DNA from: Glycomyces tenuis DSM 44171 | GTDB taxonomy: Bacteria; Actinomycetota; Actinomycetes; Mycobacteriales; Micromonosporaceae | Direction of reading: 5' to 3' | Assembly: GCF_000427885.1 (NCBI RefSeq) | Contig: NZ_ATYW01000001.1 | Coordinates: 147 to 64,146 of the forward strand | DNA length: 64,000 nucleotides | Shown here: positions 9,483 through 34,344 of the stretch, piece by piece | How the letters are laid out: each line of letters begins with the position of its first letter | Numbering within the stretch: position 1 is the stretch's first letter | Notes under the pieces: generated by a model | What the model was told of the DNA's origin: nothing | Database searches by the model: none | Seen by the model: the letters and a program-made list of their open reading frames with translations, nothing else | Position numbers and translations under genes: made by a program

Positions 9483-9549
9483 TGACCAGATCCAACCATT
9501 TCGCCCCGAGCCGGTCAACGCCGTTCCATCGCCTGCGTCGCCTCCGCCG

Positions 9550-18225: not shown

Positions 18226-18279
18226 GTGTCTGTCTGCCTTCCTGGGCGCGATTTCGAGCAGTCGGTGGGATGACCGGAG

Positions 18280-18298
18280 TTGAGTCTATATGACTCAA
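18280..18298. promoter_or_regulatory. HAIR element (HspR operator) upstream of clpB
   Basis: TTGAGT-ctatatg-ACTCAA matches the CTTGAGT-N7-ACTCAAG consensus, about 55 bp upstream of the clpB start. Confidence 0.7.
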
Positions 18299-18427
18299 CT
18301 TTTGTGCGGCCAGCGTCTTGCCTCAGCTCACAGGGTAAGGCCCCGGAGCCGCCGGGCCCGGGGCTTCGGCGCAGCGGCGGGGCGAGTCCCGAACGCCGCG
18401 AATGACGTTCGGACGCGGCCGGCGCGG

Positions 18428-18470
18428 AGCCGAAAAAGCCCCGGGCCCTGGGGGGCCCGGGGGCTTGAGT
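18428..18470 (-). terminator. Rho-independent terminator downstream of gene 18483..19157
   Basis: Minus-strand gcccccgggcccc-ccag-gggcccggggc followed by TTTTT. Confidence 0.5.
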
Positions 18471-18482
18471 GGGTTCGCGGTA

Positions 18483-19157: not shown

Positions 19158-19284
19158 GGGGACCTCCCTTATTCGATGGAATACGGCTACAGGGGCACAA
19201 CGGGTCTTAGTTGTCACGCTTCTTTGAGAGCGTACCGGTCGTCGACTCCGACTTCGCTGAGCGTAGACGGGAGAATCGCCGCTT

Positions 19285-22200
19285 CTACCGGGACCTTTGC
19301 TGCAATGCCGATTCGATGCCGCCGACCCGGTCGGACAGCAAGGTGATGGCCCCGACAGCCCTCGACATAGGATCGTCGTCGCCCCCGCCGAGCGTCTGCT
19401 CGCGACGGAACGCCTCCTTGACCGCCTCCCAACGGGCCCGCTGCTCCTCGGTCAAGCGGTCCCGCAGCTCCGCCAGTTTGAGCAGGTTCGCCTCGGCGCC
19501 GGAGGCCAGCGTCTGCGCCTCGCCCGCGTAGTGGTCGTCGATGAGCGCCTCGAGCTCCTCGTCGTTCATGACCGGAACCACCCGTTCGGTGAGTCGGTTC
19601 ATGTTGCGGTAGGAGCCCTGGAGCAGGAACGGCGGCTCGGTGCGGGCGGCGTCGTCCATCGCGGCGGACGCGATGTACGCGAGGTTGTTCCGCAGCACGG
19701 TCTGCTGGACGCGGACGAGTTTGCGCAGCACGGAGAGGATCTGGTCGAGCTCCCCGGCCGCGTAGGCGTGTTGCAGGGCGTCGGGCGCGGCCGTCGGGTC
19801 GTCGGACGCCAGGCGGATGAGCAGCCGGATGTCGTCCCGGTCGCGCCCGGCCAGCGGGGCGAGCACGCTGTTCGAGGTCAGCGCGTTCTCGATGTAGGAC
19901 TGGGCGAAGACCGCGTCGCGTCCGGACAGGACGTCGCCGAGGTTCCACACGTCGGCGCGGTTGGCGAGCATGTCGGGGATGCGGAACCGCTGCCCGGCCT
20001 CGGTGTACGGGTTGCCGGCCATGCAGACTGCGAAGCGCTTCCCGCGCAGGTCGTAGGTGCGGGTGCGGCCTCTCCAGACGCCCTCCATCTTGCGCTGGGC
20101 GTCGCACAGCGAGATGAACTTCTGGAGCAGCTCGGGGTTGGTGTGCTGGATGTCGTCCAGGTAGAGCAGGACGTTGTTGCCGCATTCGAGCGCGAAGTTG
20201 ATCTTCTCGACCTCTTGGCGGGCGGTCGCGTTCGGCGCGTCGGCCGGGTCGACCGAGACGGTCTCGTAGCCGAGCGCGGGCCCGTTGACCTTGACCAGGA
20301 GCATCCCGAGCCGGTCGGCGACGTACTCCATGAGCGTGGTCTTGCCGTAGCCGGGCGGGGAGATGAGCATGAGCATGCCGGACTGGTCGGTGCGGCGCGC
20401 GTCCCCGGAGCCGGCGCCGATCTGCTTGGCGAGGTTGGAGCCGATGAGCGGCAGGTAGACCTCGTCGATGAGCTGGTTGCGCACGAAGCCGGCCATGACC
20501 TTCGGCTTGAACTCCTCGACGCGCAGCTCGCGCTTGTGGGCCTCGATGATCTCGCCGCGGCGGCGCTGGTAGGCGCGGTAGCCGGGCATGGTCCGCGCCG
20601 CGAACCGGGAAGTGCGCGCGAGGAACTCGTCCAAGCGGATCCGCAGCGCGCGGTTCTCGATGCGCGGATGGACGCCGAGCAGGCCGGCGACCTCGGAGGC
20701 CAGTTCGGCGGTGACGTCGTACGAGTCGGCCTCGGCCAGGAGCGTCGCGAGCGCCTCGGGCAGGTCCGCGGCGTCGAAGCGCTCGTCCTCGGTCCTGCGC
20801 AGGAAGGCGTCGAGCCAGTTCCAGGCCAGGCCCCACTGGGAGTACAGGTCGCCGTCGAGGGCCAGCAGGTCGTCCTCGAACGCGGCCTTCGCGGCCGGGC
20901 CGATCTGCCGCTCGAACGCGGCGAGCAGCTCGCGGGCGCGCCCGGAGGCGGCGAACGCTCCGGTGGCGGCGAGCTCCTCGGCGAGGTACTCGGCGGCGAG
21001 CTCGGTCTGCGGTTCGAGTTTGAAGCTGAAGTGGAGCGACAGCCGCGAGCCGTCGAGGAACGGCCCGAGCTCGCTTTCGAGCTCGGCGACGAGCCCGGCC
21101 ATCGCGTCGGGGCGCCCGAAGGTCTCGCGGACCCGCGCCAGCGACCTGGCCTGGGCGGCGAGGCGCTCCCGGTCCTCCTTGTCGACGCCGTGGACCCAGT
21201 ACAGGCGCGCTGCGGCCCGGCACGCGGGCGTGTAGCGCAGCGTCCCGGCCGCGGCGTGCAGCCGCAGGACCTCGGCGAGGATCGCGGCGGCGTCGGCGTC
21301 GTGGACGCCCCTCTCGTAGCCCTCGTCGTAGCGTTCGGCCGCCGCCGCGGAGACGAAGCGGGGCAGGTCCTCCTCGGCGAGGAGCTTCGCGGCGCCGTGC
21401 TCGGCCAGCAGTGAGGCGGCCAGGTGCTCGGCCCGGTAGACCTCGGCGTTCTCCGAGGCCAGTGACTGGTTCCAGTACCGCTTCGTGTCGGCGAAGGCCG
21501 GGTCGTCGACGACGTGGCGGTAGTCGGTGCCGGTGAGCGAGAACGCGAGTGCCTCTCCCGACGGCACCAGTGTGAGGTCCAGCGGCTGCGTGTTGACCGG
21601 GATGCGGTGCTCGCCGAAGCGGATCGCGTCCCCGTCGTACAGGTCGAGCTGGTCCTGGAGCGCCCGGCCCGCCTCTTGGCGGGTGGCCTGGATGCGGCCC
21701 TCGATCTCCTCGGCGCGGACGGTGTCGTCGAGTTCGCGCAGTTCGGCGACGACGCGCCTCAGCCGCTCGATCATCGGGTCGGTCGCGAAGTAGGTGTTGA
21801 CCTCGTCCAGGGAGGACAGCGAGGCGCTGCGGCGGGCGACCGCTTCGAGGATGCGGTCGGCCGAGGCGGCGAGCCGCTCGGCGCGCCGGGCGGCCTCGTC
21901 GAGCAGGTTCTGCTTGCGCGAGGAGAACGCCTCGTAGACGTCGGTGCGCTTGTCGGCCAACTGGGCGAGGAAGTCGTCGAAGTCGGCGAAGCGGGTCTCG
22001 AGGTTCTCGACGGTCAGCAGCAGGCGCCCGAGCTGCTCGTCGCAGTCGGCGGGCGTGTTCGCGGCGGCGAGCGCGGCGGTGACGGCCTGTCCGAGCAGGG
22101 CGTACTCGGCGGCGAACTCGGCCCGGCCCTCGCCGACGGACAGCTCGCGGCGGCGGGCGGCGAGGGTGGCGCGGGTGCGGTTGACGGCGGCCAGGACCTC

Positions 22201-24225
22201 CGAGACGCGCCCGAGGATGGCGGTGCGGACGGTCGCGTCGCCGATCTCCAGAGTGGAGACGACCTCGGTGAGGGTCTCCAGGCCGTGCTGGCGGGCGTCG
22301 AGGTCCTCGACCAGCGGGGCGGACCCGGCGACGGTCTCGATGCGTTCGGCCTTGTGCTCGAGCTCGCCGATCTCGGCGAAGTAGGGCGCGAAGGCGTCCT
22401 CGCGTTCGAGGAAGGCGACGGCCCGCCTGCCGGTGCCGTCGAGGCATTCGCCCAGCTCGGCCTCCATGCCGTCGATGCGCTCGGTGTCGACGTAGCGGAG
22501 GTCGCGGAGGGTGACCAGGTGGCCTTGGGCGCCGCGCAGTTCGGTGAGCAGCCCGACCCACTGCTCGGCGGACTTCGGGGCCTCGCCGCGGGCGCGGCGC
22601 AGGAGCTTCAGCGTGTCGGTCTCGGCCTGCGCCAGGGCCTTGCCGGCCTCGGCGGTCAGCTCGGCGACGGTGGCGTACTCGTCGAGGACGGCCTCGGCGG
22701 TGTCGCGGACGCTGCGCAGCGTCTCGTCGAGCGCGAACAGGCCCTCGTCGCCGAGCCACGGGTAGTCGTCGAGGCAGCGGGTGGCGGCGGCGATGAGCGC
22801 CTCGAACACGGCCTGGCCGGGCCGCATCTCGCGGACCATGCGCGCCACCGAGAGCGCGTCGGAGACGGCGCGGACGGCCTCGGCGTTGCCGATGCGGTGG
22901 ATCGGGGTGTCGCCGCTCTCGTGGGCGGCGGCGTGGGCCTCGGAGACGAAGGGCGTCTCCCACACCTGCATGGGGTGGACGCGGGTGGCCTCGTCGCCGG
23001 TGAAGCGGAAGGCGAGCAGGGTGCCGTCGTCGAAGATCGAGTAGCCGTGGACGGTCATCGGCGCGGCGACTTCCTTGCGGATGACGTTGTACGGCAGCAG
23101 GAGCGAGCGGCCCTCGGATTCGTGGTAGAAGACGAAGAGGACGTCTTCGCCGTTGGGGGAGCGGATCACGCGCTTGAAGCGCAGGTCCGTGGTGTCGTGG
23201 TCGAAGGTCTTGAGCTTGCCCTCGTTGAGGTAGTAGCCGCCGGGGAAGATGATGCCGTGGTCTTCGGGCAGGCGGCGGCAGGCCGCGCCGACGGCGTCGG
23301 CGCGCTGGACCTCGCCGGTGCGGCGGTTGTAGATCAGGTAGCGGGTCTGCGTCTCCTTGTAGGGCAGGATCCGCAGCAGGATCAGCGGCCCGACGCGGGC
23401 GTAGGCGATCGAGGCGTCGGCCAGCGACTGGAGGGGCTCGGCGACGGGCTCGGAGAAGATGCCCTCGCCGGTCTCGGTGTTGTCCTCGACCTTGACGGTG
23501 AGCGTGCCGCCGGTGCACTCGACGAAGATCTCGTCCTCGATGGACACGTGCGGGTGGCGGCCGGTGACGTGGTCGTCCCGGCTGGTCTCGACCCACTCGA
23601 AGTCGTACGGCTCGGGCCAGACGTTGTCGGCCTCGCCGCGGGCGTCCAGGTACTCGGCGGTGCCGTCGGGGCGCAGCTGCCAGCGCAGGACGCGCTGGTC
23701 GGCGAGGTTCTCGCCGATGCGGAAGACCGCGAGCAGGCGGGTGTCGACCTGGCGCACCTGGAGCAGCTCGGTCGAGCGGTAGTACCGGTACATCTCGGTG
23801 AAGTCGGCGGTGAAGCGCGCGTCGTCGAGGACGTGCCCGGCCTGCTCGACCTCGGCGAAGGAGAACTTGCCGTCCTCGGCGGCGAACTCGTGGAGGGCGA
23901 AGACGTCGCCCACGTCGGTGTGGGACTTGAGGCCCATGTGGACGTTGTAGCCGAAGAGGAGGTGCCCGCCGACCTGCACCATGTCGCGCGGGACGCAGTT
24001 GTTGGCGGTGCGGATGCGGGTGGTGCCCGCGAGGCGCAGCTCGGTCGAGCCGAAGGCCTCGGTGCGGGCGGCGTTGAGCGTCTCGGCGCGGCCGGTCAGC
24101 TCGGTGGCGAAGTCGGCGAGGCGGGTCGACAGGACTTCATAGGTGCCGACGTCAAGGGCACTGTCGGGGGTGCTCGCTGCGCCGTCGCCGGCGGCGTCGG
24201 GTGCGGCGGTGTTCTCTTCGGCCAT
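19285..24225 (-). CDS. Giant (1646-aa) protein with a C-terminal AAA+ ATPase domain (AAA_5/dynein/MoxR-like)
   Basis: RBS GAGGGA. Long helical N-terminal region. Walker A LISPPGYGKTTLMEYV, Walker B NVLLYLDDIQHTNPELL, and an Arg-finger-like FAVCMAGNPY at about residue 1180-1300. Immediately downstream of flotillin. Confidence 0.8.
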   Translation of the reverse strand: MAEENTAAPDAAGDGAASTPDSALDVGTYEVLSTRLADFATELTGRAETLNAARTEAFGSTELRLAGTTRIRTANNCVPRDMVQVGGHLLFGYNVHMGLKSHTDVGDVFALHEFAAEDGKFSFAEVEQAGHVLDDARFTADFTEMYRYYRSTELLQVRQVDTRLLAVFRIGENLADQRVLRWQLRPDGTAEYLDARGEADNVWPEPYDFEWVETSRDDHVTGRHPHVSIEDEIFVECTGGTLTVKVEDNTETGEGIFSEPVAEPLQSLADASIAYARVGPLILLRILPYKETQTRYLIYNRRTGEVQRADAVGAACRRLPEDHGIIFPGGYYLNEGKLKTFDHDTTDLRFKRVIRSPNGEDVLFVFYHESEGRSLLLPYNVIRKEVAAPMTVHGYSIFDDGTLLAFRFTGDEATRVHPMQVWETPFVSEAHAAAHESGDTPIHRIGNAEAVRAVSDALSVARMVREMRPGQAVFEALIAAATRCLDDYPWLGDEGLFALDETLRSVRDTAEAVLDEYATVAELTAEAGKALAQAETDTLKLLRRARGEAPKSAEQWVGLLTELRGAQGHLVTLRDLRYVDTERIDGMEAELGECLDGTGRRAVAFLEREDAFAPYFAEIGELEHKAERIETVAGSAPLVEDLDARQHGLETLTEVVSTLEIGDATVRTAILGRVSEVLAAVNRTRATLAARRRELSVGEGRAEFAAEYALLGQAVTAALAAANTPADCDEQLGRLLLTVENLETRFADFDDFLAQLADKRTDVYEAFSSRKQNLLDEAARRAERLAASADRILEAVARRSASLSSLDEVNTYFATDPMIERLRRVVAELRELDDTVRAEEIEGRIQATRQEAGRALQDQLDLYDGDAIRFGEHRIPVNTQPLDLTLVPSGEALAFSLTGTDYRHVVDDPAFADTKRYWNQSLASENAEVYRAEHLAASLLAEHGAAKLLAEEDLPRFVSAAAAERYDEGYERGVHDADAAAILAEVLRLHAAAGTLRYTPACRAAARLYWVHGVDKEDRERLAAQARSLARVRETFGRPDAMAGLVAELESELGPFLDGSRLSLHFSFKLEPQTELAAEYLAEELAATGAFAASGRARELLAAFERQIGPAAKAAFEDDLLALDGDLYSQWGLAWNWLDAFLRRTEDERFDAADLPEALATLLAEADSYDVTAELASEVAGLLGVHPRIENRALRIRLDEFLARTSRFAARTMPGYRAYQRRRGEIIEAHKRELRVEEFKPKVMAGFVRNQLIDEVYLPLIGSNLAKQIGAGSGDARRTDQSGMLMLISPPGYGKTTLMEYVADRLGMLLVKVNGPALGYETVSVDPADAPNATARQEVEKINFALECGNNVLLYLDDIQHTNPELLQKFISLCDAQRKMEGVWRGRTRTYDLRGKRFAVCMAGNPYTEAGQRFRIPDMLANRADVWNLGDVLSGRDAVFAQSYIENALTSNSVLAPLAGRDRDDIRLLIRLASDDPTAAPDALQHAYAAGELDQILSVLRKLVRVQQTVLRNNLAYIASAAMDDAARTEPPFLLQGSYRNMNRLTERVVPVMNDEELEALIDDHYAGEAQTLASGAEANLLKLAELRDRLTEEQRARWEAVKEAFRREQTLGGGDDDPMSRAVGAITLLSDRVGGIESALQQRSR

Positions 24226-24323
24226 GGTCGTCCCTCTACGGTTCTGCGGTAACCACGAGTCTCGTCTCGGAAGGCGCGGGGCCGCCGCACGGGATCGGCG
24301 ATCCCGTGCGGCGGCCCGGGGGC

Positions 24324-26393
24324 CTATCGTGCGGTCATCTCGACGGCCGGGCGCTCGGCGACGCCGAGCTCCTTGGCCTTGACGAGCAGGCCGTCCAGCA
24401 TGTCGCGGTCACCGCCGCCGCCCTGGATGAGCTTGAGCAGCGCGGCCGAGACGGTCAGGTTCTTGATGTCCTCGGTGCCGACGGCGGACAGGACGCTCTT
24501 GAGGTCCTCGGAGAACGAGGTGCTCCCGTTCGCCCAGGTGGCGGCGATCGAGGAGGCCACGTCGGAGTGCTCGACGAAGCCGTCGACGGCCTTGCCGTAG
24601 CCGATCGCGCCGACCACCCGGTCGAAGAACTGGGTGTCGCCGCCGACCAGCGAGATGTCGGCCTTCGAGAGCCCGGCGGCGATGATGGAGGCCTGCTGCT
24701 CGGCGATGGCGCGCCGCGCCTCGATCTCGGCGCCGCGCAGCTCCTTCTCCATCTCGAGCCGCAGGCGGTACTCCTCGTGCGCCTGGGAGGCGGTGGAGAG
24801 GGCGTCCATCGCGGCGGCCTTCTCGGTCAGGCCCGCCGACTCGGCGACGAGCTTCTCGCGCAGGGCGTCGGCCTCGGCCGTGCCCTTCGCGGCGGTCGCG
24901 TCGGCCTCGGCCTTGCCGATCGCGGAGTAGGCCTCGGCCTCGGCCCTGCCCTTCGCCTCGGCGGCCTTGGCCTCGGCCAGCCCGCCCTTCTCGATCGCGT
25001 CGGCCTCGGCCTCGCGGACCTGCACCTCGGCCAGGCCGGGCGCGGCGGCCAGGGCCTTGTCGCCCTCGGCCTGGCGGATCTTGGCGGCGGCCTCCATCTC
25101 GGCGGCCTGCTGGGCGGCCTCGGCCTCGGTCAGGCGCTGGCGCGCGAGGTGCTTGGACGCGGCCTCGGCGGCCTCGGCGGCCTTGATGTCCTTGACCAGG
25201 TTCTCCTGGGCCTCGGCCTCGGCGAGGATGATGACCTTCTGGCGCTCGCGCTCGGCCTCTTCGGTGGCCCTCAGGCGCTTGATGCCCTCTTCCTGCTCGG
25301 CGACGGTCTTCTCGACGGCGATGCGCTCGCGGATGACGTCGGCGATGTCGCGCTTCTGGGCCTCGAGCTCCTTGTTCGCGGCGATGCGGGCCAGTTCCTC
25401 TTCGCGCTCGCGGGCGACGACCTCGAGGATGCGGTCCTTCTCGATCCGCTCGGACTCGACGGCGATGACGCGCTCGCGGTTCTTCTCGGCGACGGCGATC
25501 TCGCGCAGGCGGTTCTCGTGCTGGATCCCGGTGGCCTCTTCGGTCTTGATGCGCGCGGTCTCGGACTTGAGGCGCTCCTCGGACTGGACCTTCTGGATCT
25601 CGGCGCTCTCGCGGGCCCGGAGGGTCTCGATCTCGCGCTGCTGGCGGATCTCGGCCTCCTCTTGGCGGCGCTCGAGCTCGAGCACGGCCTCGCGGGCCTC
25701 GACGTCCTGGCGCTTGATCTCCTTCTCCTCGTGGCGCCGGTACTCGTTGGTGGTGACCGCCTCTTTGGCGGTCAGCTCGGTGATCTTGCGGATGCCCTGC
25801 GCGTCGAGGATGTTCTGCGGGTCGAGCACCGTCATCGGCGTCTGCTCGAGGTAGTCGATGGCGGCGTCCTCGAGCGAGTAGCCGTTGAGGTCGGTGCCGA
25901 TGACGTGGATGATGCGGTCGCGGAACTCGTCGCGGTTGGTGTAGAGGTCGGTGAAGTCGAGCTGCTTGCCGACGGTCTTGAGCGCCTCGGAGAACTTGGC
26001 GTTGAACAGCTCCTGAAGCGTCTCCTGGTCGGAGGCGCGCTTGGTGCCGATCGAGTTGGCGACGTTGCGGACGTCGTCGGCGGTGGCGTTGACGCGCACG
26101 AAGAACGTGATCGAGATGTCGGCGCGGATGTTGTCCTGGCAGATCAGGCCGTCTTTGCCGTTCCGGTTGATCTCGATGGTCTTGACCGAGATGTCCATGT
26201 ACTCGGCCTTGTGGATGATCGGCAGGACCAGCGCCGAGGTGAAGGACACCTTGCGGGTGCGCAGCTTGGTGACGACCAGGGCTTGACCGGGGGCCACCTT
26301 CCGGTAGAGCCGGACGATCATGAGCAGCAGGCCCACGAAGATGACCGCGGCCACTACGAGCGTGACCAGTGTCGCCGAGTTGGCAGTGTCCAT
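24324..26393 (-). CDS. Flotillin-family (SPFH/band-7) protein
   Basis: N-terminal TM segment, SPFH domain (ALVLPIIHKAEYMDISVKTIEINR...), then a very long Glu/Ala-rich coiled-coil (EA repeats) and a flotillin C-terminus. RBS AAGGAA. TAG stop. Confidence 0.9.
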   Translation of the reverse strand: MDTANSATLVTLVVAAVIFVGLLLMIVRLYRKVAPGQALVVTKLRTRKVSFTSALVLPIIHKAEYMDISVKTIEINRNGKDGLICQDNIRADISITFFVRVNATADDVRNVANSIGTKRASDQETLQELFNAKFSEALKTVGKQLDFTDLYTNRDEFRDRIIHVIGTDLNGYSLEDAAIDYLEQTPMTVLDPQNILDAQGIRKITELTAKEAVTTNEYRRHEEKEIKRQDVEAREAVLELERRQEEAEIRQQREIETLRARESAEIQKVQSEERLKSETARIKTEEATGIQHENRLREIAVAEKNRERVIAVESERIEKDRILEVVAREREEELARIAANKELEAQKRDIADVIRERIAVEKTVAEQEEGIKRLRATEEAERERQKVIILAEAEAQENLVKDIKAAEAAEAASKHLARQRLTEAEAAQQAAEMEAAAKIRQAEGDKALAAAPGLAEVQVREAEADAIEKGGLAEAKAAEAKGRAEAEAYSAIGKAEADATAAKGTAEADALREKLVAESAGLTEKAAAMDALSTASQAHEEYRLRLEMEKELRGAEIEARRAIAEQQASIIAAGLSKADISLVGGDTQFFDRVVGAIGYGKAVDGFVEHSDVASSIAATWANGSTSFSEDLKSVLSAVGTEDIKNLTVSAALLKLIQGGGGDRDMLDGLLVKAKELGVAERPAVEMTAR

Positions 26394-26540
26394 GGTGGTT
26401 CCTTATTGAGACTTCGGGGGGGACGGGATTTCAGGGGCTTGGGTTCGGGCGTCTTCACACATTACTGAGCGTTGTCAACTCACGGGGTACGGGCGCTCGC
26501 CGGATCCCGCCTTTCGGTACTCCGGCCGTGCGAGCGGGCG

Positions 26541-27095
26541 TCAGAGCGTGCGGCGCCGCGAAGCGGCACGCCGGATGCCCTCGAGCCGGGACCGAGCGTC
26601 GCGGCGCCGCCTGTTCCGACGGCGTTCGACCTCCAAGTCCCTTTTCCACTGCGGCCACCGCTCCCAGTTGCGGCGGCGCTCGGCCATGCCGATGAGCGCG
26701 GTCAGCAGCGCCGGGATCCAGGGAAGCCACAGCGGGCGCAGCAGCAGCGAGGCCGAGACGGGTCCGCCACCGGCCTCGGCGTGGTCGGCCACCGCCGACC
26801 ACGCCCCGATCAGCATGAACACGGCGAACACGATCACGAACGCCGGGAAGGTGGCGGAGGACCACACCACCGTCTCGCGGCCGCGCCGTTCCAGACGCCG
26901 CTCGACCGCGGCCTCGTGCTCCTCGACGTCGCGCTGGAATCGCTCGGCGCGCTCGACCTCGGCGTGGGCGGGCAGCTCGGGGCCGGGGTCGATCTTGGCC
27001 CAGACGAGCACCGCGAGGAGCAGCGCGGCGGCGAGGATGAGCGCGCACCCGCCGAGGAGGGCCAGCGCCGCCAGCAGCGCGATTCCCGCCGACAT
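26541..27095 (-). CDS. Hypothetical membrane protein (2-3 TM), flotillin-operon member
   Basis: MSAGIALLAALALLGGCALILAAALLLAVLVWAKI..., central TM FPAFVIVFAVFMLIGAW, Arg-rich C-terminus. ATG overlaps the stop of the upstream small ORF (TGATG). Confidence 0.55.
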   Translation of the reverse strand: MSAGIALLAALALLGGCALILAAALLLAVLVWAKIDPGPELPAHAEVERAERFQRDVEEHEAAVERRLERRGRETVVWSSATFPAFVIVFAVFMLIGAWSAVADHAEAGGGPVSASLLLRPLWLPWIPALLTALIGMAERRRNWERWPQWKRDLEVERRRNRRRRDARSRLEGIRRAASRRRTL

Positions 27096-27244
27096 CAGTC
27101 GCGGTCCCGGTCAGCCGACCGCCTCGACCTGCCGCGCCAGCCCAGCAGCACCGCGACCGCGACGATGAGCACCCCGACCGCGCCGGTCAGCGCCCACGCC
27201 GCGAACACGAGCCCCCAGCCCGGGATTTCAAACCACTCGCCCAC
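27095..27244 (-). CDS. Small (49-aa) single-TM protein, not in the ORF track
   Basis: RBS GGAGGG plus GTG: VGEWFEIPGWGLVFAAWALTGAVGVLIVAVAVLLGWRGRSRRSADRDRD. Stop/start coupled (TGATG) to the next gene. Confidence 0.35.
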   Translation of the reverse strand: MGEWFEIPGWGLVFAAWALTGAVGVLIVAVAVLLGWRGRSRRSADRDRD

Positions 27245-27548
27245 GCTGCCCTCCGCGCGACCGCGCTGTTCTTCCGGCTCGGTCGAGCCGTCCGACTCCT
27301 TGACGCCCGACGCGGCGCGCCTCGGGCCCGAACTCGGTGCCGGTGAGCGCGCCGCCGACGCTCACGGTGACGGCGACCTCGCCCTCCTCGGACTCGACGC
27401 GGACGCTGACCTCCGCGATCTTCTCCTGCATGTCGTCCGCTCGGCTTCGCATGGTGGCCATGCGCTGCTCGAAATCGCGCATGCGGCCTTCGTGATCCGC
27501 CAAGATCGAGGGTCTCCCGGCGCTCTGACGCTGTTCTTCACGGACCAT
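27228..27548 (-). CDS. Hypothetical protein with weak YbaB/EbfC-like core
   Basis: ...DMQEKIAEVSVRVESEEGEVAVTVSVGGALTGTEFGPEA... matches the YbaB pattern Q-x-K-(I/M)...EV.G.S.GG.V.V.V.G. The C-terminal 25 aa are Arg/Gly-rich and overlap the small TM ORF, so a frameshift is possible. Confidence 0.4.
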   Translation of the reverse strand: MVREEQRQSAGRPSILADHEGRMRDFEQRMATMRSRADDMQEKIAEVSVRVESEEGEVAVTVSVGGALTGTEFGPEARRVGRQGVGRLDRAGRTARSRGGQRGRVV

Positions 27549-27624
27549 TTGCGCTTCTTGTGAGGGAGTGGGATGGTTGGGCCGAGCCAGTGCATCGACG
27601 AGACGCCAAGACGCCTGGGGCCGT

Positions 27625-28290
27625 TCACGGCACGTCGAGACTGACCTCGGGCGGCATCGCGACCGGCACGACGAGGAAGACCTTGGCGCTCTCGTCGTAG
27701 TCGAAGATCACGAGCTTCGAGTGACGCGAGAACAGCTCGTCGTCGATGCCGTCGGGTTCGTGGACGGAGCGCCGCACGTTGATGAGGTGGATCGTGCCGT
27801 CCTCTTCGGCCAGTTCGGCCTGGCCGGTGTCGGTGGTGACGGTGCCGGTCCTGACGACGCAGACCTTGCCGATCAGGTCGCGGTGGGCCGTGGCGGGCGC
27901 ATCGGCGAAGATCTTGGACAGCGGCCCGGACAGCAGCTTCGCGCCCAGCATGCCGACCCCGATCCCGGCCACGAGCATGGCGACGCCGGAGACCGCCGCG
28001 GGGACGACCATGTCGGCGCTGCGCACCCACGTGGTGCCGAGCACGGTCACTATCCAGCCCAATGTGATCCACAGCGAGAGCACCACTGTGAACGGCACTT
28101 CGCCGAACCCGAACGCCGACCAGAAGGAGCCGCCCGTCTCCACTTCGGCGTCGACGTCGGCCCCGAAGGGGACGACGTCGACGTCCAATGCGCCCAGGAT
28201 GACGACGATCCAGTACAGGAAGACCGCGATGAGACCGAAGGAGAACACGATCGCAGGAAACGACAGGGCTACTTCCAGGAACTCGGTCAT
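27625..28290 (-). CDS. NfeD/YqiJ-like membrane protein with C-terminal OB-fold
   Basis: MTEFLEVALSFPAIVFSFGLIAVFLYWIVVILGAL (TMs) ... GKVCVVRTGTVTTDTGQAELAEEDGTIHLINVR (NfeD-type OB-fold). First gene of the flotillin supra-operon. Confidence 0.6.
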   Translation of the reverse strand: MTEFLEVALSFPAIVFSFGLIAVFLYWIVVILGALDVDVVPFGADVDAEVETGGSFWSAFGFGEVPFTVVLSLWITLGWIVTVLGTTWVRSADMVVPAAVSGVAMLVAGIGVGMLGAKLLSGPLSKIFADAPATAHRDLIGKVCVVRTGTVTTDTGQAELAEEDGTIHLINVRRSVHEPDGIDDELFSRHSKLVIFDYDESAKVFLVVPVAMPPEVSLDVP

Positions 28291-28495
28291 GGGTCTTCGG
28301 GTCCTTGTCTTCCGCTCGCGTGGGCGCTTGTGCGAACGGCGTACGGCGGGCGGGCGGCACAGTCCGGTCAACAAGATTCGGGTCTGCATTCAGATTAATG
28401 CACGCGGGCACTCGGCGGTAGGTTGCTCCGAGCCGACTATCCTGTGACCGGTCGAACAGCCCTCGCAGGCCGGGGGCGACCCGAGAGGAGGTCCG

Positions 28496-30898
28496 GTGCC
28501 CGGTTTCCGCTCCACACTGGCGAATGCGGCCGCGGGCTGCGACATCGCCGCGGCCCGGCTCGCCTCGGCCCGTCAGTGGCTCGGCGAGGCCGCCTTCAGG
28601 ACGCCGGTGGACCCGGCGCTCTTGGACGCCGAACGTCAGATATCCGACGCGGCCGCCGCCTCCGCCGCGCATCTGCGCGAAGACCCCGAGCTCCTGGCCG
28701 CCGGGCAGGTGCTCCTCCACGAAGGACGACGCTTCCCGCTCCTGGTGCCGTTCGGCGCGAGGGGCCACCTGGCGACGAGCGTCGACGCCCGCGTCGACGG
28801 CGTCGCCGCGCTGGTCAGGGCCGCGATCCTGCACACGCTGGCCCACCACGAGCCGGGGAAGGTGCGCGTGGCGGGCATCGACACCGCCACGCTCGGGGCG
28901 ACGTTCGCGCCGCTGCGGCCGCTCGCGGACGCGGGCGTCATCGAGGCCGTCGCCACCGACGCGCGCTCGGCGGCCGACGTCGTCGCGGCGGCCGAGACCC
29001 AGGTGTCCGAGAGCATCGCGGGGCGCCGCACCGACCGGCTGCTGCTGGCGATCGCCTCCCTCGGGGAGGCGCCGAGGACGCTCGTCGAACGCGTCCACGC
29101 GCTGGCGCGCTCGGGGCTCGCGCACGGCGTCACCGTCCTCGGCTGCGGGCTCCCCGAGCTGCCGCAGGCGACGGTGATGCACCAGGCGGGCGAGCGCGTC
29201 GAAGTGTCCAACCCGCCCGCGGCGCCGATCTCGCGCGGCGAGCGGCTGGCCGCGCCGGTCGCCTGGCCCGAGGGCGCCGCCCCCTCCTATCTGGCCGGCG
29301 AGGCCGCGCGCCTGGCCGAGCGCGCCAGGGCCGCGGCGACGCTCACCTTCGACGACCTCATCCCCGACGTCCCGCTCGGCGAGGACCCGTCGAGCGGTCT
29401 GGAGGTCCTGATCGGGCGCGACGCGGCCGGGGAGGTGCGGATGCGCTTCGACGACGCCACGCCGCACTGGCTCGTCGGCGGGCGCACCGGCGGCGGCAAG
29501 ACGGTGTTCCTGCTCGACGTGCTCTACGGGCTGGCCTCGCGCTACTCCCCCTCCGACCTGGCGCTGTTCCTGCTCGACTTCAAGGAGGGCGTCTCGTTCA
29601 CCGAGTTCATCCCCACCGAGCGGGACGACACCTACATCCCGCACGCCCGCGCCGTCGGCGTCGAGTCCGACCGGGAGTACGGGCTGGCGGTGCTGCGGGC
29701 GCTGAACGAGGAGATGACGACCCGGTCGACGGTGATGAAGCGCTACGGCGTGGCCGGTTTCGCGGGGCTGCGGCGCCACGAGTCGTATCCGAGGATCGTG
29801 TGCGTCGCCGACGAGTTCCAGGTGCTGCTGGCCGGGAACGACAAGGTCGCCTCCGAGGCCGTCGCGCTGCTGGAGAACCTCGCCCGCAAGGGCCGCTCGT
29901 ACGGCGTGCACCTGGTGCTGGCCTCGCAGACGATCTCGGGGATCGAGGCGCTGTGGTCGAAGAAGGACTCGATCTTCGGGCAGTTCCCGATGCGCGTGGC
30001 GCTGCCGGGGGCGCGGACGATCCTGGAGCCGAACAACGACGCGGCGACGCGGATCTCGCTGGGGCAGGTGGTGGTCAACACCGAGGGCGGCACCGCCGGG
30101 GCCGACCGGGTGGCGCGCTTCCCCGACACCGACGCCGAGGTGATGCTGCGGCTGCGCGAGCAGCTGCGGGCCGCGCACTCGGACTTCGGGGCGCCGCGCG
30201 TGTTCTACGGCTACCGTCCCGTGCACTTCGCCGAGACGCTGCCAGGCGAGCGCCGGCCCGGCCGGGTGCTGCTCGGCCGCGAGGTGTCGCTGCGGCTCGA
30301 GGCCGCGGGCGTCGACCTCGACGCGCGGCCCGGCCGCCACCTGGCGATCCTCGGCTCCGACCCGGCCGGCGGCGAGGCGCTGGAGGCCGCGGCGCAGAGC
30401 CTGGCGTACCACGCCCCGCCCGAGCGGGAGGTGTGGGCGGTGGACTTCACCGAGGGCTACAACCTGCCGAACATCGGCTACAACCTTCCCCCTGGGGACT
30501 TCGCGAGCAAACTTCCCGAAGTCCCCGACAACACCGTGATCCTGGCGTGGGGCCTCGAAGCGGCCTCGCTCGACGTGAAGGGGCAGCAGGCGCTTCGGGC
30601 GCTGCTGCGCACCGGCCCCGCCCGCGGCGTCCACCTGCTGGCCTGGTGGCGGATCTACCGCCGCTTCCTCGACGACATCGGCGGCACCGCCGGACGCGAG
30701 GACGTCGCCTGCACGCTCGTGCTCAACCTGCCCGGATCCGAGCTCTTCGGCCACTTCGGGCAGCAGTTCCAGCACTGGAGCCCGCGCCCGGGGCGGGCGC
30801 TCCTGATCGACCGCCACGCCGACACCGGCTCGGGCCGCCTCATCGTGCCCTTCACCCGCCCCTCGGCCGGGGCGACCACGGAAAGGGACCGCGTGTGA
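28496..30898 (+). CDS. FtsK/SpoIIIE-family ATPase, cytoplasmic, three P-loop-like domains with only the central one canonical
   Basis: Central domain WLVGGRTGGGKTVFLLDVLYGL (Walker A)...IVCVADEFQVLLAG (Walker B)...LVLASQTISGI. Flanking domains are degenerate. No TM segment. RBS GAGGAGG plus GTG start. Confidence 0.85.
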   Translation: MPGFRSTLANAAAGCDIAAARLASARQWLGEAAFRTPVDPALLDAERQISDAAAASAAHLREDPELLAAGQVLLHEGRRFPLLVPFGARGHLATSVDARVDGVAALVRAAILHTLAHHEPGKVRVAGIDTATLGATFAPLRPLADAGVIEAVATDARSAADVVAAAETQVSESIAGRRTDRLLLAIASLGEAPRTLVERVHALARSGLAHGVTVLGCGLPELPQATVMHQAGERVEVSNPPAAPISRGERLAAPVAWPEGAAPSYLAGEAARLAERARAAATLTFDDLIPDVPLGEDPSSGLEVLIGRDAAGEVRMRFDDATPHWLVGGRTGGGKTVFLLDVLYGLASRYSPSDLALFLLDFKEGVSFTEFIPTERDDTYIPHARAVGVESDREYGLAVLRALNEEMTTRSTVMKRYGVAGFAGLRRHESYPRIVCVADEFQVLLAGNDKVASEAVALLENLARKGRSYGVHLVLASQTISGIEALWSKKDSIFGQFPMRVALPGARTILEPNNDAATRISLGQVVVNTEGGTAGADRVARFPDTDAEVMLRLREQLRAAHSDFGAPRVFYGYRPVHFAETLPGERRPGRVLLGREVSLRLEAAGVDLDARPGRHLAILGSDPAGGEALEAAAQSLAYHAPPEREVWAVDFTEGYNLPNIGYNLPPGDFASKLPEVPDNTVILAWGLEAASLDVKGQQALRALLRTGPARGVHLLAWWRIYRRFLDDIGGTAGREDVACTLVLNLPGSELFGHFGQQFQHWSPRPGRALLIDRHADTGSGRLIVPFTRPSAGATTERDRV

Positions 30899-31521
30899 GC
30901 GCCTTCGACGACTACCTCGCCCAGCTGAGGCGCCTCGACGAGGCGCGGCGCGGCGCCGACGAGGCCGCCGCGCGCTCCGCCTCGGTGACCGAGTCGCTGG
31001 GGCAGCGGACCGAGCGGCTCGCCGAACAGGCCGCCTCGCAGCGCGCCGCCGTCGACGAACTCGCCCGCGCCGCCCGCACCGAGCCGCCCCCGCGCGTCGC
31101 CGGGGCGCCGCTCGGCGGCGACCCGGCCGTCGAGATCGACGCCGCCGAGGCCGACCTGCAAACGGCCGCGACCGAACTCGAAGACGCCCGCTTCCTGGCG
31201 CACCGGCCGCCGTGGCTGCCGCGCTGGCGCACCGACGAGCGCAACGGCCTCGTCTACGGCCTGTTCGCGCTCGCCTCGCTGCTGGTGCAACTGCTGGTGC
31301 TGCGGCTGGTGAAGGCCGACGACCTGATGGGGGCGATCGTGCTCGCCGCGGTCGTCGTCGCCTGCCCGCTGCTGGCGTTCGCCTTGGCCTGGTTGACCAT
31401 CGGGGTGACCTCGCGCCCGCGCATCACCGACGAGGAGAAGAAGCTCGAACGCAACTTCCGCCTCGGCCTGGTGCTGTGCGGCTCCACGCTGATCGTCTCC
31501 TGCTTCGGCTTCTTCAGCTGA
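30895..31521 (+). CDS. Membrane protein translationally coupled to the FtsK-like ATPase (GTGA overlap)
   Basis: VSAFDDYLAQLRRLDEARRG... coiled-coil N-terminus, then three TM segments (LVYGLFALASLLVQLLVLRLV; AIVLAAVVVACPLLAFALAWLTIGV; LGLVLCGSTLIVSCFGFFS). Confidence 0.6.
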   Translation: MSAFDDYLAQLRRLDEARRGADEAAARSASVTESLGQRTERLAEQAASQRAAVDELARAARTEPPPRVAGAPLGGDPAVEIDAAEADLQTAATELEDARFLAHRPPWLPRWRTDERNGLVYGLFALASLLVQLLVLRLVKADDLMGAIVLAAVVVACPLLAFALAWLTIGVTSRPRITDEEKKLERNFRLGLVLCGSTLIVSCFGFFS

Positions 31522-31615
31522 GCCCCTTGGGTTGTCGGGAACCCGACAGATGCCGGTCGGTGGCGCGCCGTGTCGTTAGGCCGGTGTTCGAACGAGCGCT
31601 CGTAATGTCCCGGCC

Positions 31616-32190
31616 GTGACCACTTATGAGCACGAAGCGCCTTTGCGGCTGCTTCAAGACAACCCGAAGCTCGCCGAAGAGCTGTACTGCGGGCTGCTCG
31701 GCCAACGCCTCCCGGACTACACCGACGTCAGATCCGGTTCGGAGGCGATGACCCGCGGCGACGACGCGGTCATTCGCAACTGCGACAACGTCGCGGTCTA
31801 CTACTTCGGTGAAAAGCCGGCCTTCGCGCTGCTCTTCGAGGTGCAGCGCGGTAAGGACAACGACAAGCACTACAGCTGGCTCGACTACATCGCATCGGCG
31901 CGGACCCGACTCCAATGCCCGGTGGCGCTGGTCGTGATCACCTTCGACGAGGCCACGGCCAGGTGGGCGAACTCGCCCATCGAGACGGGCCATCCGGGCC
32001 TCATCTTGCACCCGCTGGTCATCGGCCCGGACCAGATCCCGGTCATCACCGACCCCGATGAAGGACGCGAGAACGTCTCAGTGGCACTGCTCTCGCTCGT
32101 CGCCCACGGCGGCGGCGATCGGGGCGGCGACGTCATACGGGCCTACTACGAAACCATCCGAGGATTCGACCGGACACTCTGGTCGCGATA
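31616..32190 (+). pseudogene. Rpn/YhgA-like PD-(D/E)xK nuclease-like gene, N-terminal part, truncated by the IS insertion
   Basis: ...NVAVYYFGEKPAFALLFEVQRGKDNDKHYSWLDYIASARTRLQCPVALVVITFDE... follows the Rpn layout (LIEhQS-like block ... PVxxIVxY). Recognisable similarity ends near nt 32190, where the ORF runs antisense into the tnpB 3' end. Confidence 0.5.
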
Positions 32191-33560
32191 CGGTCAACTA
32201 CCCCGGGTTGAGGCCCAGGGCTTGTCGCTCGTGTCCGCCGCTGGATTGCGGCGTATCGGCGACAATGGGCTGGTTGACGACAGCCCAGGTCATGCGTGCG
32301 CGGTCTCGGATGTTGACCGCGGCTACCCGGTCGGCGGGTCCAGCGAGTCCGCACCCCCGACAGGCGAAATAGTCTCTGGTGGGCCGGTTGGCCTTGGTGG
32401 TGTGCCCGCACCGCGGGCACCTCCGTGAGGTGTTGTGGGCGTCGATCACGACCACCGGCACCCCGGCCCGGCGTGCTTTGTAGGTGATGAAGGCCTGGAG
32501 TTGATGGAAGGACCACGCGTTCAGCTCGCCTCGCTGGGCGGCTGGGAGCCGTACCCGGTCACGGATGCCTTTGAGGTCTTCAAGCGCGATGCCGCGACCG
32601 GTGCGTTCAGCCTTGCCTACGAGCTGTTTCGCGATCCGGTGATTGACGTCTTTGACCGCCCGTGCCTCCCGGCGAGCGCGGGCCTTGAGTTTCTTCTTCG
32701 CCGATTTGGTGGCCTTGGCTTGGAGTTCGGCGCGGACTTTCGCCATCCGTTTGCGGTAGCGTCGGAGCCCGGTGCCGCAGTGATTGTCGCCGTCAGAGGT
32801 GGTGGCGATGTTGACGATCCCCATATCCACGCCGAGGAAATCGGCCGGGGCGGTGTTCGGTTCGCCATCAGGGATGTCGACCGTGGCCAGCAGGTACCAG
32901 TGCCCGTCGCGGAACATCAGGTCGGATTCGCCCTGGCGGTGGCGCTCCAAGGTTTTGAGGTGGTCGACATGGCCGGTGAAGGCGATGCCGCGCATCCGGC
33001 CCCTGATGGTCCAGATGGAGATGGTGCGTGTGTCGTGCTGCCACGATAGGCACCGGTCATCGAATGCTTGGGCCGCATCGGGGCGGAAGGCGATCGGCTT
33101 CGCCCTCGCCTTCGCCGCGCGTCTGCCCTGCAGCCGCCCAGCTGCGATGAGCCCGGCGATGGTGGTGTAGGCGTGGCAGGTTTTCTTGATGACCAGTTGC
33201 GCGATCTGTGAGCCGAGCCCGCGGTCCTTGAGATGGGTGTAGGTGTGCTGGCGCAGCGCGTACTCCCGCGGCACCCCATGCCGGTAGGCCACGCCCGAAG
33301 CCCAGTTCGCGGCCTCGTTCACCGCGCGCAGGGTCTGCTCCAGCGCCCGCGCCTGTTCCGGCGTCGGCACCAGCTTCACCTGCACGACCTGCTTGCCCAC
33401 ACATGCAACGGTAGCTACCAGGTCCGACAAGAACACCGATCCCGGCTCCGATCACTCAGTGCCATCCAGGCCGCTCATTGCTCACAGACCCACCCCGTGG
33501 GATCGTGAGCAGGCGATCACCACAAATTCCTCCACGGAGTGGAACCCCATGGGACCCTTT
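32180..33560 (-). mobile_element. IS200/IS605-family TnpB-only element (IS1341-like), ends approximate
   Basis: tnpB at 32198..33436 with no tnpA. Imperfect subterminal hairpin ctcacagacccac...gtgggatcgtgag at about 33497-33525. The element separates two halves of an Rpn-like gene. Confidence 0.6.
32198..33436 (-). CDS. tnpB: TnpB (IS605 OrfB-family RNA-guided endonuclease)
   Basis: 412 aa. The RuvC-like split motifs are GVDMGIVNIATTSDGDNH and VVVIDAHNTSRRCPRCGHTTKANRPTRDYFACRGCG (zinc finger) ... ADRVAAVNIRDRA. Confidence 0.85.
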   Translation of the reverse strand: MFLSDLVATVACVGKQVVQVKLVPTPEQARALEQTLRAVNEAANWASGVAYRHGVPREYALRQHTYTHLKDRGLGSQIAQLVIKKTCHAYTTIAGLIAAGRLQGRRAAKARAKPIAFRPDAAQAFDDRCLSWQHDTRTISIWTIRGRMRGIAFTGHVDHLKTLERHRQGESDLMFRDGHWYLLATVDIPDGEPNTAPADFLGVDMGIVNIATTSDGDNHCGTGLRRYRKRMAKVRAELQAKATKSAKKKLKARARREARAVKDVNHRIAKQLVGKAERTGRGIALEDLKGIRDRVRLPAAQRGELNAWSFHQLQAFITYKARRAGVPVVVIDAHNTSRRCPRCGHTTKANRPTRDYFACRGCGLAGPADRVAAVNIRDRARMTWAVVNQPIVADTPQSSGGHERQALGLNPG

Positions 33561-33597
33561 ACGAACCAAACTGAATACGCGCTTCAAGGAGATCAGT

Positions 33598-33854
33598 TCA
33601 TGCTTCTGCAGGAGATCATCATGAGCGACACCGCGCTCCCCAACACCTACCGGCTGGGACTCTTCGGTGAGAAGTACCGCGAAGGGAAGGCCGAGGGCGA
33701 GCGCACCGCGCTGAACCTGTATCTCGAACTCCGCGAGATCCCCGTCTCCGCGGCCGTACAGACGCGAATCGACTCCTGCGACGACGCCGAGCGGCTGAAA
33801 GCGTGGCTCGCCGAGCTGATCCGGACCGACAGCGTGGACCACATCCGGGACTGA
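33598..33854 (+). pseudogene. DUF4351-like C-terminal fragment of the Rpn-like gene, displaced by the IS
   Basis: ...LFGEKYREGKAEGERTALNLYLELREIPVSAAVQTRIDSCDDAERLKAWLAELIRTDSVDHIRD fits the DUF4351 C-terminal pattern (FG.lp..v..ri...d...L..W...ll). Confidence 0.45.
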
Positions 33855-34344
33855 GCCGCGGCTCGACGATCGCTGCGAGTTCCGCTTCATCGCAGACGGC
33901 ATGTAACGGCGCGGTCTCCCGGCGGGGAGCCGCGCCGTCCGCTCTGCGGCGCCTGACGAGGTAGGCCAGGCCGATCACGGGCAGGACCAGCGGGACGAAG
34001 CCGTAGCCCGAGCCGAAGTGCGACCACACCGACGCCTCGGGGAACCAGTCCTCCACCGCGTAGCTCAGCGCCCCGACGCCCACCACTCCGGCCAGCTCGA
34101 CGCTCACCGCCGCCAGCGCGAGACCTGCCGCGCCGCGCACGATCGCGATCGCCGCGACGAGGTAGATGAACGCGGCGACCGCGCTGAGGGAGTAGCTGAT
34201 CGGGGCATGGTCGAACTTCGTCGCGATCTGATACCCGGCCCGCACCCCCGCCGAGACCGCGAAGACGACGTAGACCAGGACGACGAGCCTGCCGAAACCG
34301 GCCGACAGGGAGCGCCTCGCGGGCGCGGTCTCAGGCGACGACAT
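33619..34344 (-). CDS. Hypothetical membrane protein (4 TM); C-terminal extent uncertain
   Basis: MSSPETAPARRSLSAGFGRLVVLVYVVFAVSAGV...AVAAFIYLVAAIAIV...LALAAVSVELAGVVGVGAL...FVPLVLPVIGLAYLV. No stop until 33619, so the tail may be spurious read-through opposite the DUF4351 fragment. Confidence 0.4.
   Translation of the reverse strand: MSSPETAPARRSLSAGFGRLVVLVYVVFAVSAGVRAGYQIATKFDHAPISYSLSAVAAFIYLVAAIAIVRGAAGLALAAVSVELAGVVGVGALSYAVEDWFPEASVWSHFGSGYGFVPLVLPVIGLAYLVRRRRADGAAPRRETAPLHAVCDEAELAAIVEPRLSPGCGPRCRSGSARRATLSAARRRRRSRFASVRPRRRGSRGVRDTGSARCARPRPSLRGTSHRRVPAGRCWGARCRS

Follow-up and report, generated by a model that had tools for sequence, protein, structure and literature searches.

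Results

The window analyzed here is a stretch of 64,000 nucleotides from Glycomyces tenuis DSM 44171 (contig NZ_ATYW01000001.1), and our subject is a pair of overlapping genes at positions 28496-31521 of its plus strand, which encode an FtsK/EccC-like ATPase and a small membrane protein that we will call the partner. The ATPase gene is an 800-codon open reading frame (ORF; 28496-30898, +) with a GTG start, preceded at a distance of 4 nt by a Shine-Dalgarno-like element read from the sequence, GAGAGGAGG (28483-28491, +). The GC content of its third codon positions is 0.96, typical of real genes in this genome of 70% GC, and NCBI lists a G. tenuis protein with 100% identity to its product as an "FtsK/SpoIIIE domain-containing protein." The partner gene (30895-31521, +) encodes 208 residues with a coiled coil and three transmembrane (TM) helices. 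The two genes are coupled through a GTGA overlap, in which the TGA stop codon of the ATPase gene (30896-30898) is interleaved with the GTG start codon of the partner gene (30895-30897).

The ATPase is a soluble, cytoplasmic protein of three modules. It has no TM segment (no 19-residue window has a Kyte-Doolittle hydropathy of 1.4 or more), and PF01580 is its only Pfam domain (E 7e-25, centered on residues 299-424), with TraG-D_C (E 7e-4) and TrwB matching below threshold. An AlphaFold model, built with 16 homologs as input (mean pLDDT 85.6, pTM 0.73), begins at the N terminus with two helices that form a hairpin (residues 2-60), followed by an α/β module (~62-262), a helix that serves as linker, and two further α/β modules (~296-562 and ~585-790). 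The hairpin segment (residues 1-60; 28496-28675, +) is modeled as helices 2-33 and 40-60. The central module (29381-30181, +) is of the catalytic FtsK type, and the canonical motifs are confined to it: Walker A GGRTGGGKT (residues 329-336; 29480-29503, +), Walker B DEF (residues 439-441; 29810-29818, +), and ARKGRSYGVHLVLASQ, all invariant across the family described below. The arginine-finger region of this module is ARKGRSYG, and neither of the other modules keeps an arginine finger.

The modules on either side have the same fold in degenerate form. The N-terminal one (28679-29281, +), comparable to the DUF domain of EccC, reads VDARVDGVA at the P-loop position, and the C-terminal one (30248-30865, +) carries GSDPAGGEA in place of Walker A; neither has the acidic pair of Walker B, neither contains a GK[ST] motif, and the protein as a whole has a single Walker A. 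Profile-profile comparisons with hhalign are weak but colinear (E 1e-5 for N- versus C-terminal module, 0.002 for N-terminal versus middle, and 0.008 for C-terminal versus middle), which places the N- and C-terminal segments in P-loop register. One catalytically competent module between two dead P-loop modules is thus confirmed. The layout is best read as DUF-like, then D1-like, then a single D2/D3-like module; phmmer aligns residues 94-126 with the region ahead of D1 in Thermomonospora curvata EccC.

Several comparisons address the relatives of the ATPase. Foldseek matches the model best to the cytoplasmic part of T. curvata EccC with its three ATPase domains (4nh0, E 2e-28, over 887 aligned columns). 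In the fold comparison list, the FtsK motor stands at 26.6, EccC D2-D3 at 24.5, the EccC cytoplasmic region at 24.2 with 463 residues aligned, TcpA at 23.5, and the DUF domain of EccC5 at 14.8. The NCBIfam scores favor EccC and EssC (EccCa 84.9, EssC 67.8, EccCb 54.9, FtsK 33.9, and TraD 16.4 bits), with the EccCb match covering residues 318-643, and phmmer against the PDB gives E values of 5.6e-16 for EccC, 2e-11 for YukB, 5e-9 for FtsK, and 3e-3 for TcpA. The EccC and EssC scores all lie far under the NCBIfam cutoffs (84.9 versus 509 bits for TIGR03924, 54.9 versus 347 for TIGR03925, and 67.8 versus 778 for TIGR03928). Judged from sequence and predicted fold, then, the nearest known protein is the ATPase EccC of type VII secretion systems (T7SSs), but the defining features of EccC fail. 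We reject the protein as a true EccC because the cis TM helices and the triple P-loop are absent and the curated EccC/EssC models are far below cutoff. Orthology to FtsK is likewise excluded by its score (33.9 versus a cutoff of 1566 bits for NF007615) and by the absence of a γ domain.

The model of the partner (pLDDT 80) contains a long cytoplasmic coiled coil, made up of a 57-residue helix (residues 3-59) and a second helix (77-102), and TM helices at residues 115-138, 144-172, and 188-207 (31237-31308, 31324-31410, and 31456-31515, all +). Just before the first TM helix lies a strongly conserved juxtamembrane motif, ARFLAHRPPWLPRWRxDERNGLVYG. The partner has no match in Pfam, NCBIfam, or PADLOC and no structural neighbor in the PDB, and its word-detectable homologs are all Glycomyces "hypothetical proteins." A Micromonospora protein encoded at the same position is nevertheless homologous to and colinear with it (E 4e-7).

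By its sequence, the pair is a member of a large, unnamed, and uncharacterized actinobacterial family. An exhaustive phmmer search returned 1,180 clusters at 50% identity with E below 1e-30. Among the best ~150 representatives, nearly all are TM-less proteins of 800-1000 residues with exactly one, centrally placed Walker A; a few are giant multi-P-loop proteins with N-terminal TM helices, which are outliers of the canonical EccC-like kind. The Glycomyces pair has each of the traits of the family, namely the length of 800-1000 residues, the lack of TM segments, a single Walker A in central position, and, immediately downstream, a gene for a coiled-coil/TM partner. Thousands of members are labeled just "FtsK/SpoIIIE domain-containing protein" or "cell division protein FtsK," the latter probably wrongly.

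We scanned genomes for the family and collected 80 loci from Glycomycetales, Micromonosporaceae, and Kineosporia. At about 70 of them, the ATPase gene is directly followed by a homolog of the partner gene, which mostly begins 4 nt before the ATPase stop codon and whose product combines a coiled coil with TM helices toward the C terminus (usually three), and in Actinomadura a coiled-coil/TM partner likewise follows the ATPase directly. Because the arrangement recurs in this way, the two-gene unit is the conserved entity, and a physical partnership of the two products has strong comparative support. A neighbor-joining tree divides the ATPases into four clades: a Glycomyces type, a second Glycomycetales paralog, a clade linked to VirB4-type genes (below), and one that joins Micromonospora paralog A with Salinispora and Kineosporia. 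A literature search found no publication on the ATPase family or on DUF6244, a protein family met below; a conflict-systems paper by Kaur et al. mentions inactive FtsK domains and Hsp70/GrpE themes, and the ATPase module is absent from it.

An earlier note on this DNA, made from the sequence alone, had anticipated much of this. Its degenerate-active-degenerate arrangement agrees with the motifs, the AlphaFold model, and the profile-profile comparison; the resemblance that it saw to EccC/EssC and TcpA-type ATPases is upheld by the NCBIfam scores, phmmer, and Foldseek, and the lack of an N-terminal TM/FHA region by Pfam and hydropathy. The coordinates and the GTGA coupling to a small membrane protein hold, with the overlap at 30895-30898, and its suggestion that the downstream three-TM protein serves as membrane anchor gains strong comparative support from the same arrangement at ~70 of the 80 loci. 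Its label "orphan," on the other hand, is misleading, since the ATPase belongs to a large conserved family.

A third gene often accompanies the module. When the neighbors were clustered, Actinoplanes-type genomes proved to have a gene for an 86-residue protein immediately downstream of the partner gene, and a hidden Markov model (HMM) of this protein also matches proteins in Phytomonospora and Salinispora, an ORF upstream of the Actinomadura ATPase, and an ORF after the partner of a Rhodococcus plasmid. DUF6244 proteins encoded after Micromonospora paralog A match the same HMM weakly (E 3e-5 to 1e-2). With DUF6244 included as a distant relative, the 86-residue family adjoins the module at 49 of ~90 loci. 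Its members do not vary in length; they conserve GSxH where the hairpin is predicted to turn, as well as an aromatic residue five positions from the C terminus. One member matches the Pfam family WXG100 at a non-significant E of 0.08; these proteins are WXG100-like in size and predicted shape only, and the sequence similarity is non-significant.

The plasmid locus just mentioned (Rhodococcus pseudokoreensis NZ_CP070617.1, 69175-77792) holds a 930-residue family member in an apparent operon. Upstream of the FtsK-like gene it encodes a 131-residue TM protein, a divergent Hsp70, a J-domain/TPR/TM protein, and GrpE; downstream follow a 203-residue coiled-coil partner with one TM helix, the 86-residue hairpin protein, a 272-residue protein, and a 134-residue protein. 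The 272-residue protein combines an N-terminal helical with a C-terminal globular domain, and together with the 134-residue protein it resembles a toxin/immunity pair, a putative assignment. At 15 Micromonospora loci, a ~896-residue protein with no Pfam match is encoded directly upstream of paralog A (neighbor cluster c24; in one locus at 7206-9902); judged by eye, it appears to have a central TM segment and a C-terminal region like a periplasmic binding protein.

Downstream of the pair, on the same strand, the window contains a VirB4-type block (55343-62805, +), which could be a cooperating apparatus. The block opens with small proteins of 93 and 129 residues and continues with a VirB4/TcpF-like ATPase (56059-59214, +; AAA_10 E 5e-21, TcpF E 4e-22), a 630-residue polytopic membrane protein (59211-61103, +), a 189-residue protein with an N-terminal TM segment (61106-61675, +), and a protein that combines transglycosylase-like and M23 peptidase parts (61672-62805, +). 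The block follows the ATPase pair on the same strand at a distance of 25.2 kb in G. tenuis and 22.5 kb in Glycomyces sambucus. In G. tenuis, the 10 kb on either side of the block contain no FtsK-like gene, which fits a subunit supplied from elsewhere.

The link between the two units comes from other genomes. At 25 of the 80 family loci, all in genomes related to one another, orthologs of the genes for the VirB4-like, polytopic, 189-residue, and M23 proteins lie directly upstream of the FtsK-like, partner, and 86-residue genes, in the same order and on the same strand, and the VirB4-like proteins there are 74-80% identical to the window copy. Among the genera represented are Actinoplanes, Phytohabitans, Krasilnikovia, Couchioplanes, Asanoa, Catenuloplanes, and Pseudosporangium. 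The VirB4-linked locus is also present in Micromonospora zamorensis, inserted between folP-folB-folK-DUF3180 and folE-ftsH; its FtsK-like gene, with a partner, is a further paralog in that genome. In this VirB4-linked paralog (18477-21038 of the locus record), the lysine of Walker A and the DE pair of Walker B are gone (SGRSAGGRAAF and LDNV); the other paralog, elsewhere in the genome, and all Actinoplanes-type VirB4-linked copies retain the motifs. This loss may reflect subfunctionalization after duplication.

The block belongs to what the earlier note had called a secretion island. The minus-strand genes of this island (~40.2-55 kb) include three for YbaB-like and two for weak WXG100/PPE-like proteins, the first YbaB-like/WXG-like genes lying ~10-11 kb downstream of the ATPase pair; the WXG100/PPE-like matches, all weak, are 17-24 kb downstream. 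EssA, EssB, and EsaA genes of the T7SSb type were absent from the window by Pfam and NCBIfam, and the conserved core of the island is the VirB4/TcpF-type set, not a T7SS. Past the end of the window, contig KL571656.1 carries genes for YbaB (EspL-like), EspC-like (PF10824), and WXG100-like proteins and two SUKH-4 genes, so that YbaB-like, WXG100/PPE-like, EspC-like, and SUKH-4 immunity genes occupy both sides of the VirB4-type set, an organization that resembles polymorphic-toxin cassettes. Copies of the VirB4-like protein from Glycomycetales and Micromonosporales share 63-93% identity, and the set looks like an ancient, chromosomally fixed apparatus of the type IV secretion system (T4SS) kind with no published characterization. 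In Micromonospora lupini, a canonical ESX-4-like T7SS is found elsewhere in the genome, and the "VirB4-like" gene in question is just noted amid unknowns (PMC4182475). Because M. lupini has such a system elsewhere, the WXG-like proteins may equally be substrates of a classical T7SS.

On its other side, the pair is divergent from a block conserved in Glycomyces (15622-28389, -), which encodes ClpB, a 1707-residue DUF3686+DUF7902+AAA protein, a 689-residue SPFH/flotillin protein (24324-26393, -), and an NfeD-like TM protein, the last named by its architecture, with no Pfam match. We rejected a functional tie of the pair to this block because such neighbors occur in Glycomyces only, and other genera have different flanks. 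The ATPase gene is found near TetR and CopC genes and the dnaK operon in Haloglycomyces, near radA-disA in Stackebrandtia, near birA and cya in Actinomadura, and, for Micromonospora paralog A, near gltBD and the gene for the 896-residue protein.

Synteny at the locus extends across Glycomyces, with the stretch 27655-32192 kept at 89% in Glycomyces arizonensis. Relative to that species, G. tenuis has a specific insertion at 32193-33935 that contains a TnpB insertion sequence (IS), with an IS605-family TnpB ORF at 32198-33436 (-); the IS is thus a later, G. tenuis-specific arrival. The earlier note had placed the pair between the flotillin operon and an IS-disrupted region, 11 kb from the secretion island, and the neighbors are as it described. 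The TnpB element overlaps the 3' end of a 270-residue ORF (31616-32428, +) that has no family match; in G. arizonensis this ORF is conserved as far as the site of the insertion. A second G. tenuis-specific insertion of 1.2 kb (26437-27654), absent from G. arizonensis, separates the NfeD-like and flotillin genes; it contains a 184-residue TM ORF (26541-27095, -) and a 106-residue ORF (27228-27548, -) that matches the first half of the YbaB profile only. Near the start of the window, a DDE_5 transposase gene (473-1459, -; PF13546, E 3e-52) is a second mobile-element remnant.

Discussion

We see about an even chance that the ATPase and its partner form a "split," membrane-tethered EccC-like motor for translocation or coupling. 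In such a motor, the partner would dock the ATPase at the membrane and so replace the cis TM/stalk region of EccC, TcpA, and FtsK. Its cytoplasmic helices would bind the ATPase, perhaps at the N-terminal hairpin (residues 1-60), which is a candidate docking element for the partner coiled coil. The docked ATPase would probably be hexameric like its relatives, and the partner may add to a channel. The single live central module would power substrate translocation, and the dead modules could act as regulatory or substrate-recognition platforms, as D2/D3 do in EccC. The cargo would most likely be protein, namely the small helical hairpins in other lineages and possibly the WXG/EspC/PPE-like island proteins in Glycomyces, although DNA could also be carried. 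Finally, the motor may cooperate with the VirB4/TcpF-type membrane apparatus at 55.3-62.8 kb.

Several observations weigh against parts of this picture. Stackebrandtia albiflava has no partner downstream of its ATPase gene, and the docking of the ATPase by the partner is something that we infer from gene coupling alone. EccB, EccD, and mycosin (MycP) genes are absent from the window by Pfam and NCBIfam. With respect to cargo, the 86-residue profile finds EsxB/ESAT-6 in the PDB in full-length, colinear, but non-significant matches (E 0.2-2.3), and the 86-residue gene is absent from the window and from all Glycomyces, Haloglycomyces, and Stackebrandtia loci examined, so a cognate cargo is not encoded at the Glycomyces locus. 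With respect to the apparatus, the pair lies 25 kb from the VirB4-type set in the window, with housekeeping genes between; variable genes lie between the FtsK-like unit and the VirB4-type set in Actinoplanes; and the module occurs with no VirB4-type neighbors in Micromonospora paralog A, Actinomadura, Haloglycomyces, and the Rhodococcus plasmid. Moreover, the neighbor-joining tree leaves undecided both the order of the four clades and the orthology of the Glycomyces and VirB4-linked proteins.

It is in this light that we read the earlier proposal that the pair is the missing coupling subunit of the island. The position of a sister clade beside the same VirB4-type genes, at the 25 loci and in Micromonospora, speaks for it; the unsettled orthology, the distance of 25 kb, and the occurrence of the module elsewhere without the set speak against it. 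The synteny link is thus real but incomplete, and the apparatus to which it leads is of the VirB4/Tcp type rather than a T7SS. A functional link of the pair to the VirB4-type set is plausible, not established, and we consider it less likely than not. A more elaborate version seems to us unlikely. Here, Glycomycetales and Micromonosporales would possess a hybrid secretion machine, fixed in the chromosome and not described before, composed of the VirB4/TcpF ATPase, the polytopic and N-TM proteins, the transglycosylase/M23 protein, the split EccC-like motor, and mostly also the 86-residue WXG-like protein; in Glycomyces this machine would export the flanking WXG/EspC/PPE-like polymorphic toxins, and the pair at 28496-31521 would form a detached unit that recognizes substrates and energizes the machine.

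The observations admit other explanations. The ATPase and its three-TM partner alone could be the translocon for the hairpin proteins, that is, an autonomous minimal T7SS-like exporter with no tie to VirB4, whose hairpin gene has been lost or moved in Glycomyces. The triad does occur in Actinomadura, Salinispora, Micromonospora paralog A (there with DUF6244), Phytomonospora, and the Rhodococcus plasmid at loci where VirB4-type genes are missing from the surrounding 6-10 kb; EccC is the nearest relative of the ATPase; and the fixed 86-residue length, the GSxH turn, and the near-C-terminal aromatic residue of the hairpin proteins also speak for such a reading. Yet the similarity of the hairpin family to WXG100 is non-significant, the Glycomyces locus and its vicinity contain no hairpin gene, the exporter would have to build a channel from three TM helices per subunit, and the VirB4-type adjacency in 25 or more genomes would have to be a coincidence. 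We therefore find this possibility somewhat doubtful. Alternatively, in these sporulating actinomycetes the partner could recruit the ATPase to division or sporulation septa to clear or segregate chromosomal DNA, as a translocase of the SffA/SmeA kind. A precedent exists in the SmeA-SffA pair, whose small membrane component recruits the FtsK-like ATPase encoded in the same operon (PMC6428758, PMC4255298), and the core chromosomal locations and apparently vertical inheritance in Glycomyces would suit such a role. This seems rather improbable, because the ATPase has no γ/winged helix-turn-helix (wHTH) DNA-recognition domain and ends in a dead P-loop module instead, its NCBIfam FtsK score is below those of the EccC family, and the flanking degenerate ATPase modules and the 86-residue hairpin gene are hallmarks of T7SS rather than FtsK type. 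SmeA-SffA has, moreover, been reported to be restricted to Streptomyces, Kitasatospora, and Catenulispora (PMC4255298).

Two further explanations were weighed. As a component of a conflict or defense system, it would be akin to the FtsK-like modules of SspH, mad8, DptH, or chaperone-associated toxin systems. The domain-level PADLOC matches (mad8 5e-16, SspH 6e-16) and the flanks of the Rhodococcus plasmid module, with their Hsp70, J-TPR, GrpE, and toxin/immunity-like genes, point in that direction. The PADLOC matches (mad8, SspH, HerA) are, however, confined to the central ATPase domain and generic, for which reason we reject membership in a defense system; no further defense components adjoin the Glycomyces pair, and its stable core-genome position across the genus and constant membrane partner are unlike typical defense islands. 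Such a role is very improbable. We consider close to negligible the probability that the ATPase is a transfer protein of a Streptomyces TraB-type conjugative plasmid or actinomycete integrative and conjugative element (AICE), or a mobile-element remnant, even though it has an FtsK/SpoIIIE domain and the weak TraG-D_C match and an IS lies 0.7 kb downstream of the pair. By tblastn, nothing on 72,556 plasmids or 50,697 phages matches at least 80% of the ATPase, and the matches on Streptomyces plasmids span its central ~245 residues (about 31%) at ~27% identity. The pSVH1-type TraB recognition sequence (TRS) GACCCGGA, the variant scanned, occurs 4 times in the 64 kb versus 7.1 expected and never near the locus, and no repeat array is present in 27.5-32.3 kb. 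Integrase, replication, and spd genes are not adjacent to the pair, and, as noted above, the locus is syntenic across the genus and the IS a later insertion. With central-domain matches only and negative TRS and repeat scans, we reject a TraB/clt, phage, plasmid, or mobile-element origin. The earlier note had named clear orthology to a partition or TraB-type protein with its own clt-like site as what would speak against its proposal, and on this point the outcome favors it: there is no such orthology, no plasmid or phage homolog at that coverage, and no clt-like repeat.

If the split-motor reading is confirmed, the pair would offer a natural "split" system in which to study docking, gating, and substrate feeding of T7SS-type ATPases, the family appearing to have shifted the anchor to a separate, co-translated protein and to have cut the motor to one live ATPase module. 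It would also supply a candidate motor, and with it a hypothesis open to test, for the conserved but uncharacterized VirB4-type cluster, which lies in the folate operon region in Micromonosporaceae and among WXG/EspC/PPE-like toxin and SUKH immunity genes in Glycomyces. The annotation of the family members now labeled by their FtsK domain alone would improve as well.

Comparison with known systems places these proteins nearest to EccC/EssC (YukB), which gives the best sequence match and the sole colinear multi-domain fold match. Each contains FtsK-like modules in tandem that are not equally competent for catalysis, and in each the main catalytic module comes after a degenerate P-loop module, which in EccC is the DUF domain; in most lineages a small helical-hairpin gene accompanies the ATPase family, as in the EccC/EssC systems. 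The Glycomyces ATPase differs in having no cis TM helices, the membrane part being a separate three-TM protein; in having three modules rather than DUF plus D1-D3; and in the complete loss of the P-loop from its flanking modules, whereas D2 and D3 of EccC retain theirs. With FtsK/SpoIIIE it shares the PF01580 motor domain, in which Walker A, Walker B, and the arginine finger are all intact, but it lacks the 4-TM N-terminal domain, the long linker, and the γ domain (a wHTH that reads FtsK-orienting polar sequences, KOPS) and has extra dead P-loop modules, one of which forms its C terminus. The likeness to SmeA-SffA is one of operon logic only, a small membrane protein and an FtsK-like protein in one operon (PMC6428758, PMC4255298), and the gene order is reversed relative to the Glycomyces pair.

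The TcpA/VirD4 type of coupling protein, as in the Tcp locus of pCW3, offers a parallel in position: the sister clade of the ATPase is encoded next to genes for a VirB4/TcpF-like ATPase, a polytopic membrane protein, and a peptidoglycan hydrolase, which is where a coupling protein would be expected. TcpA, however, carries N-terminal TM helices of its own and just one ATPase domain, in contrast to the three modules and the anchor in trans here, and the sequence similarity is weak (the PDB phmmer E of 3e-3 given above). The VirB4-type cluster also differs from the Tcp locus in being chromosomally fixed, in Micromonosporaceae between folK/DUF3180 and folE-ftsH, and in its distance of 25 kb from the ATPase pair in the window; neither a relaxase nor an oriT was noticed with the set or the pair, no systematic search for relaxases having been made. 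To our knowledge, the well-studied secretion and coupling motors of the FtsK superfamily (EccC/EssC, TcpA, FtsK, and TraB) all carry the membrane anchor in the same polypeptide. The present family differs from every described motor of that superfamily in that its anchor is encoded in trans and its one live module stands between two dead ones.

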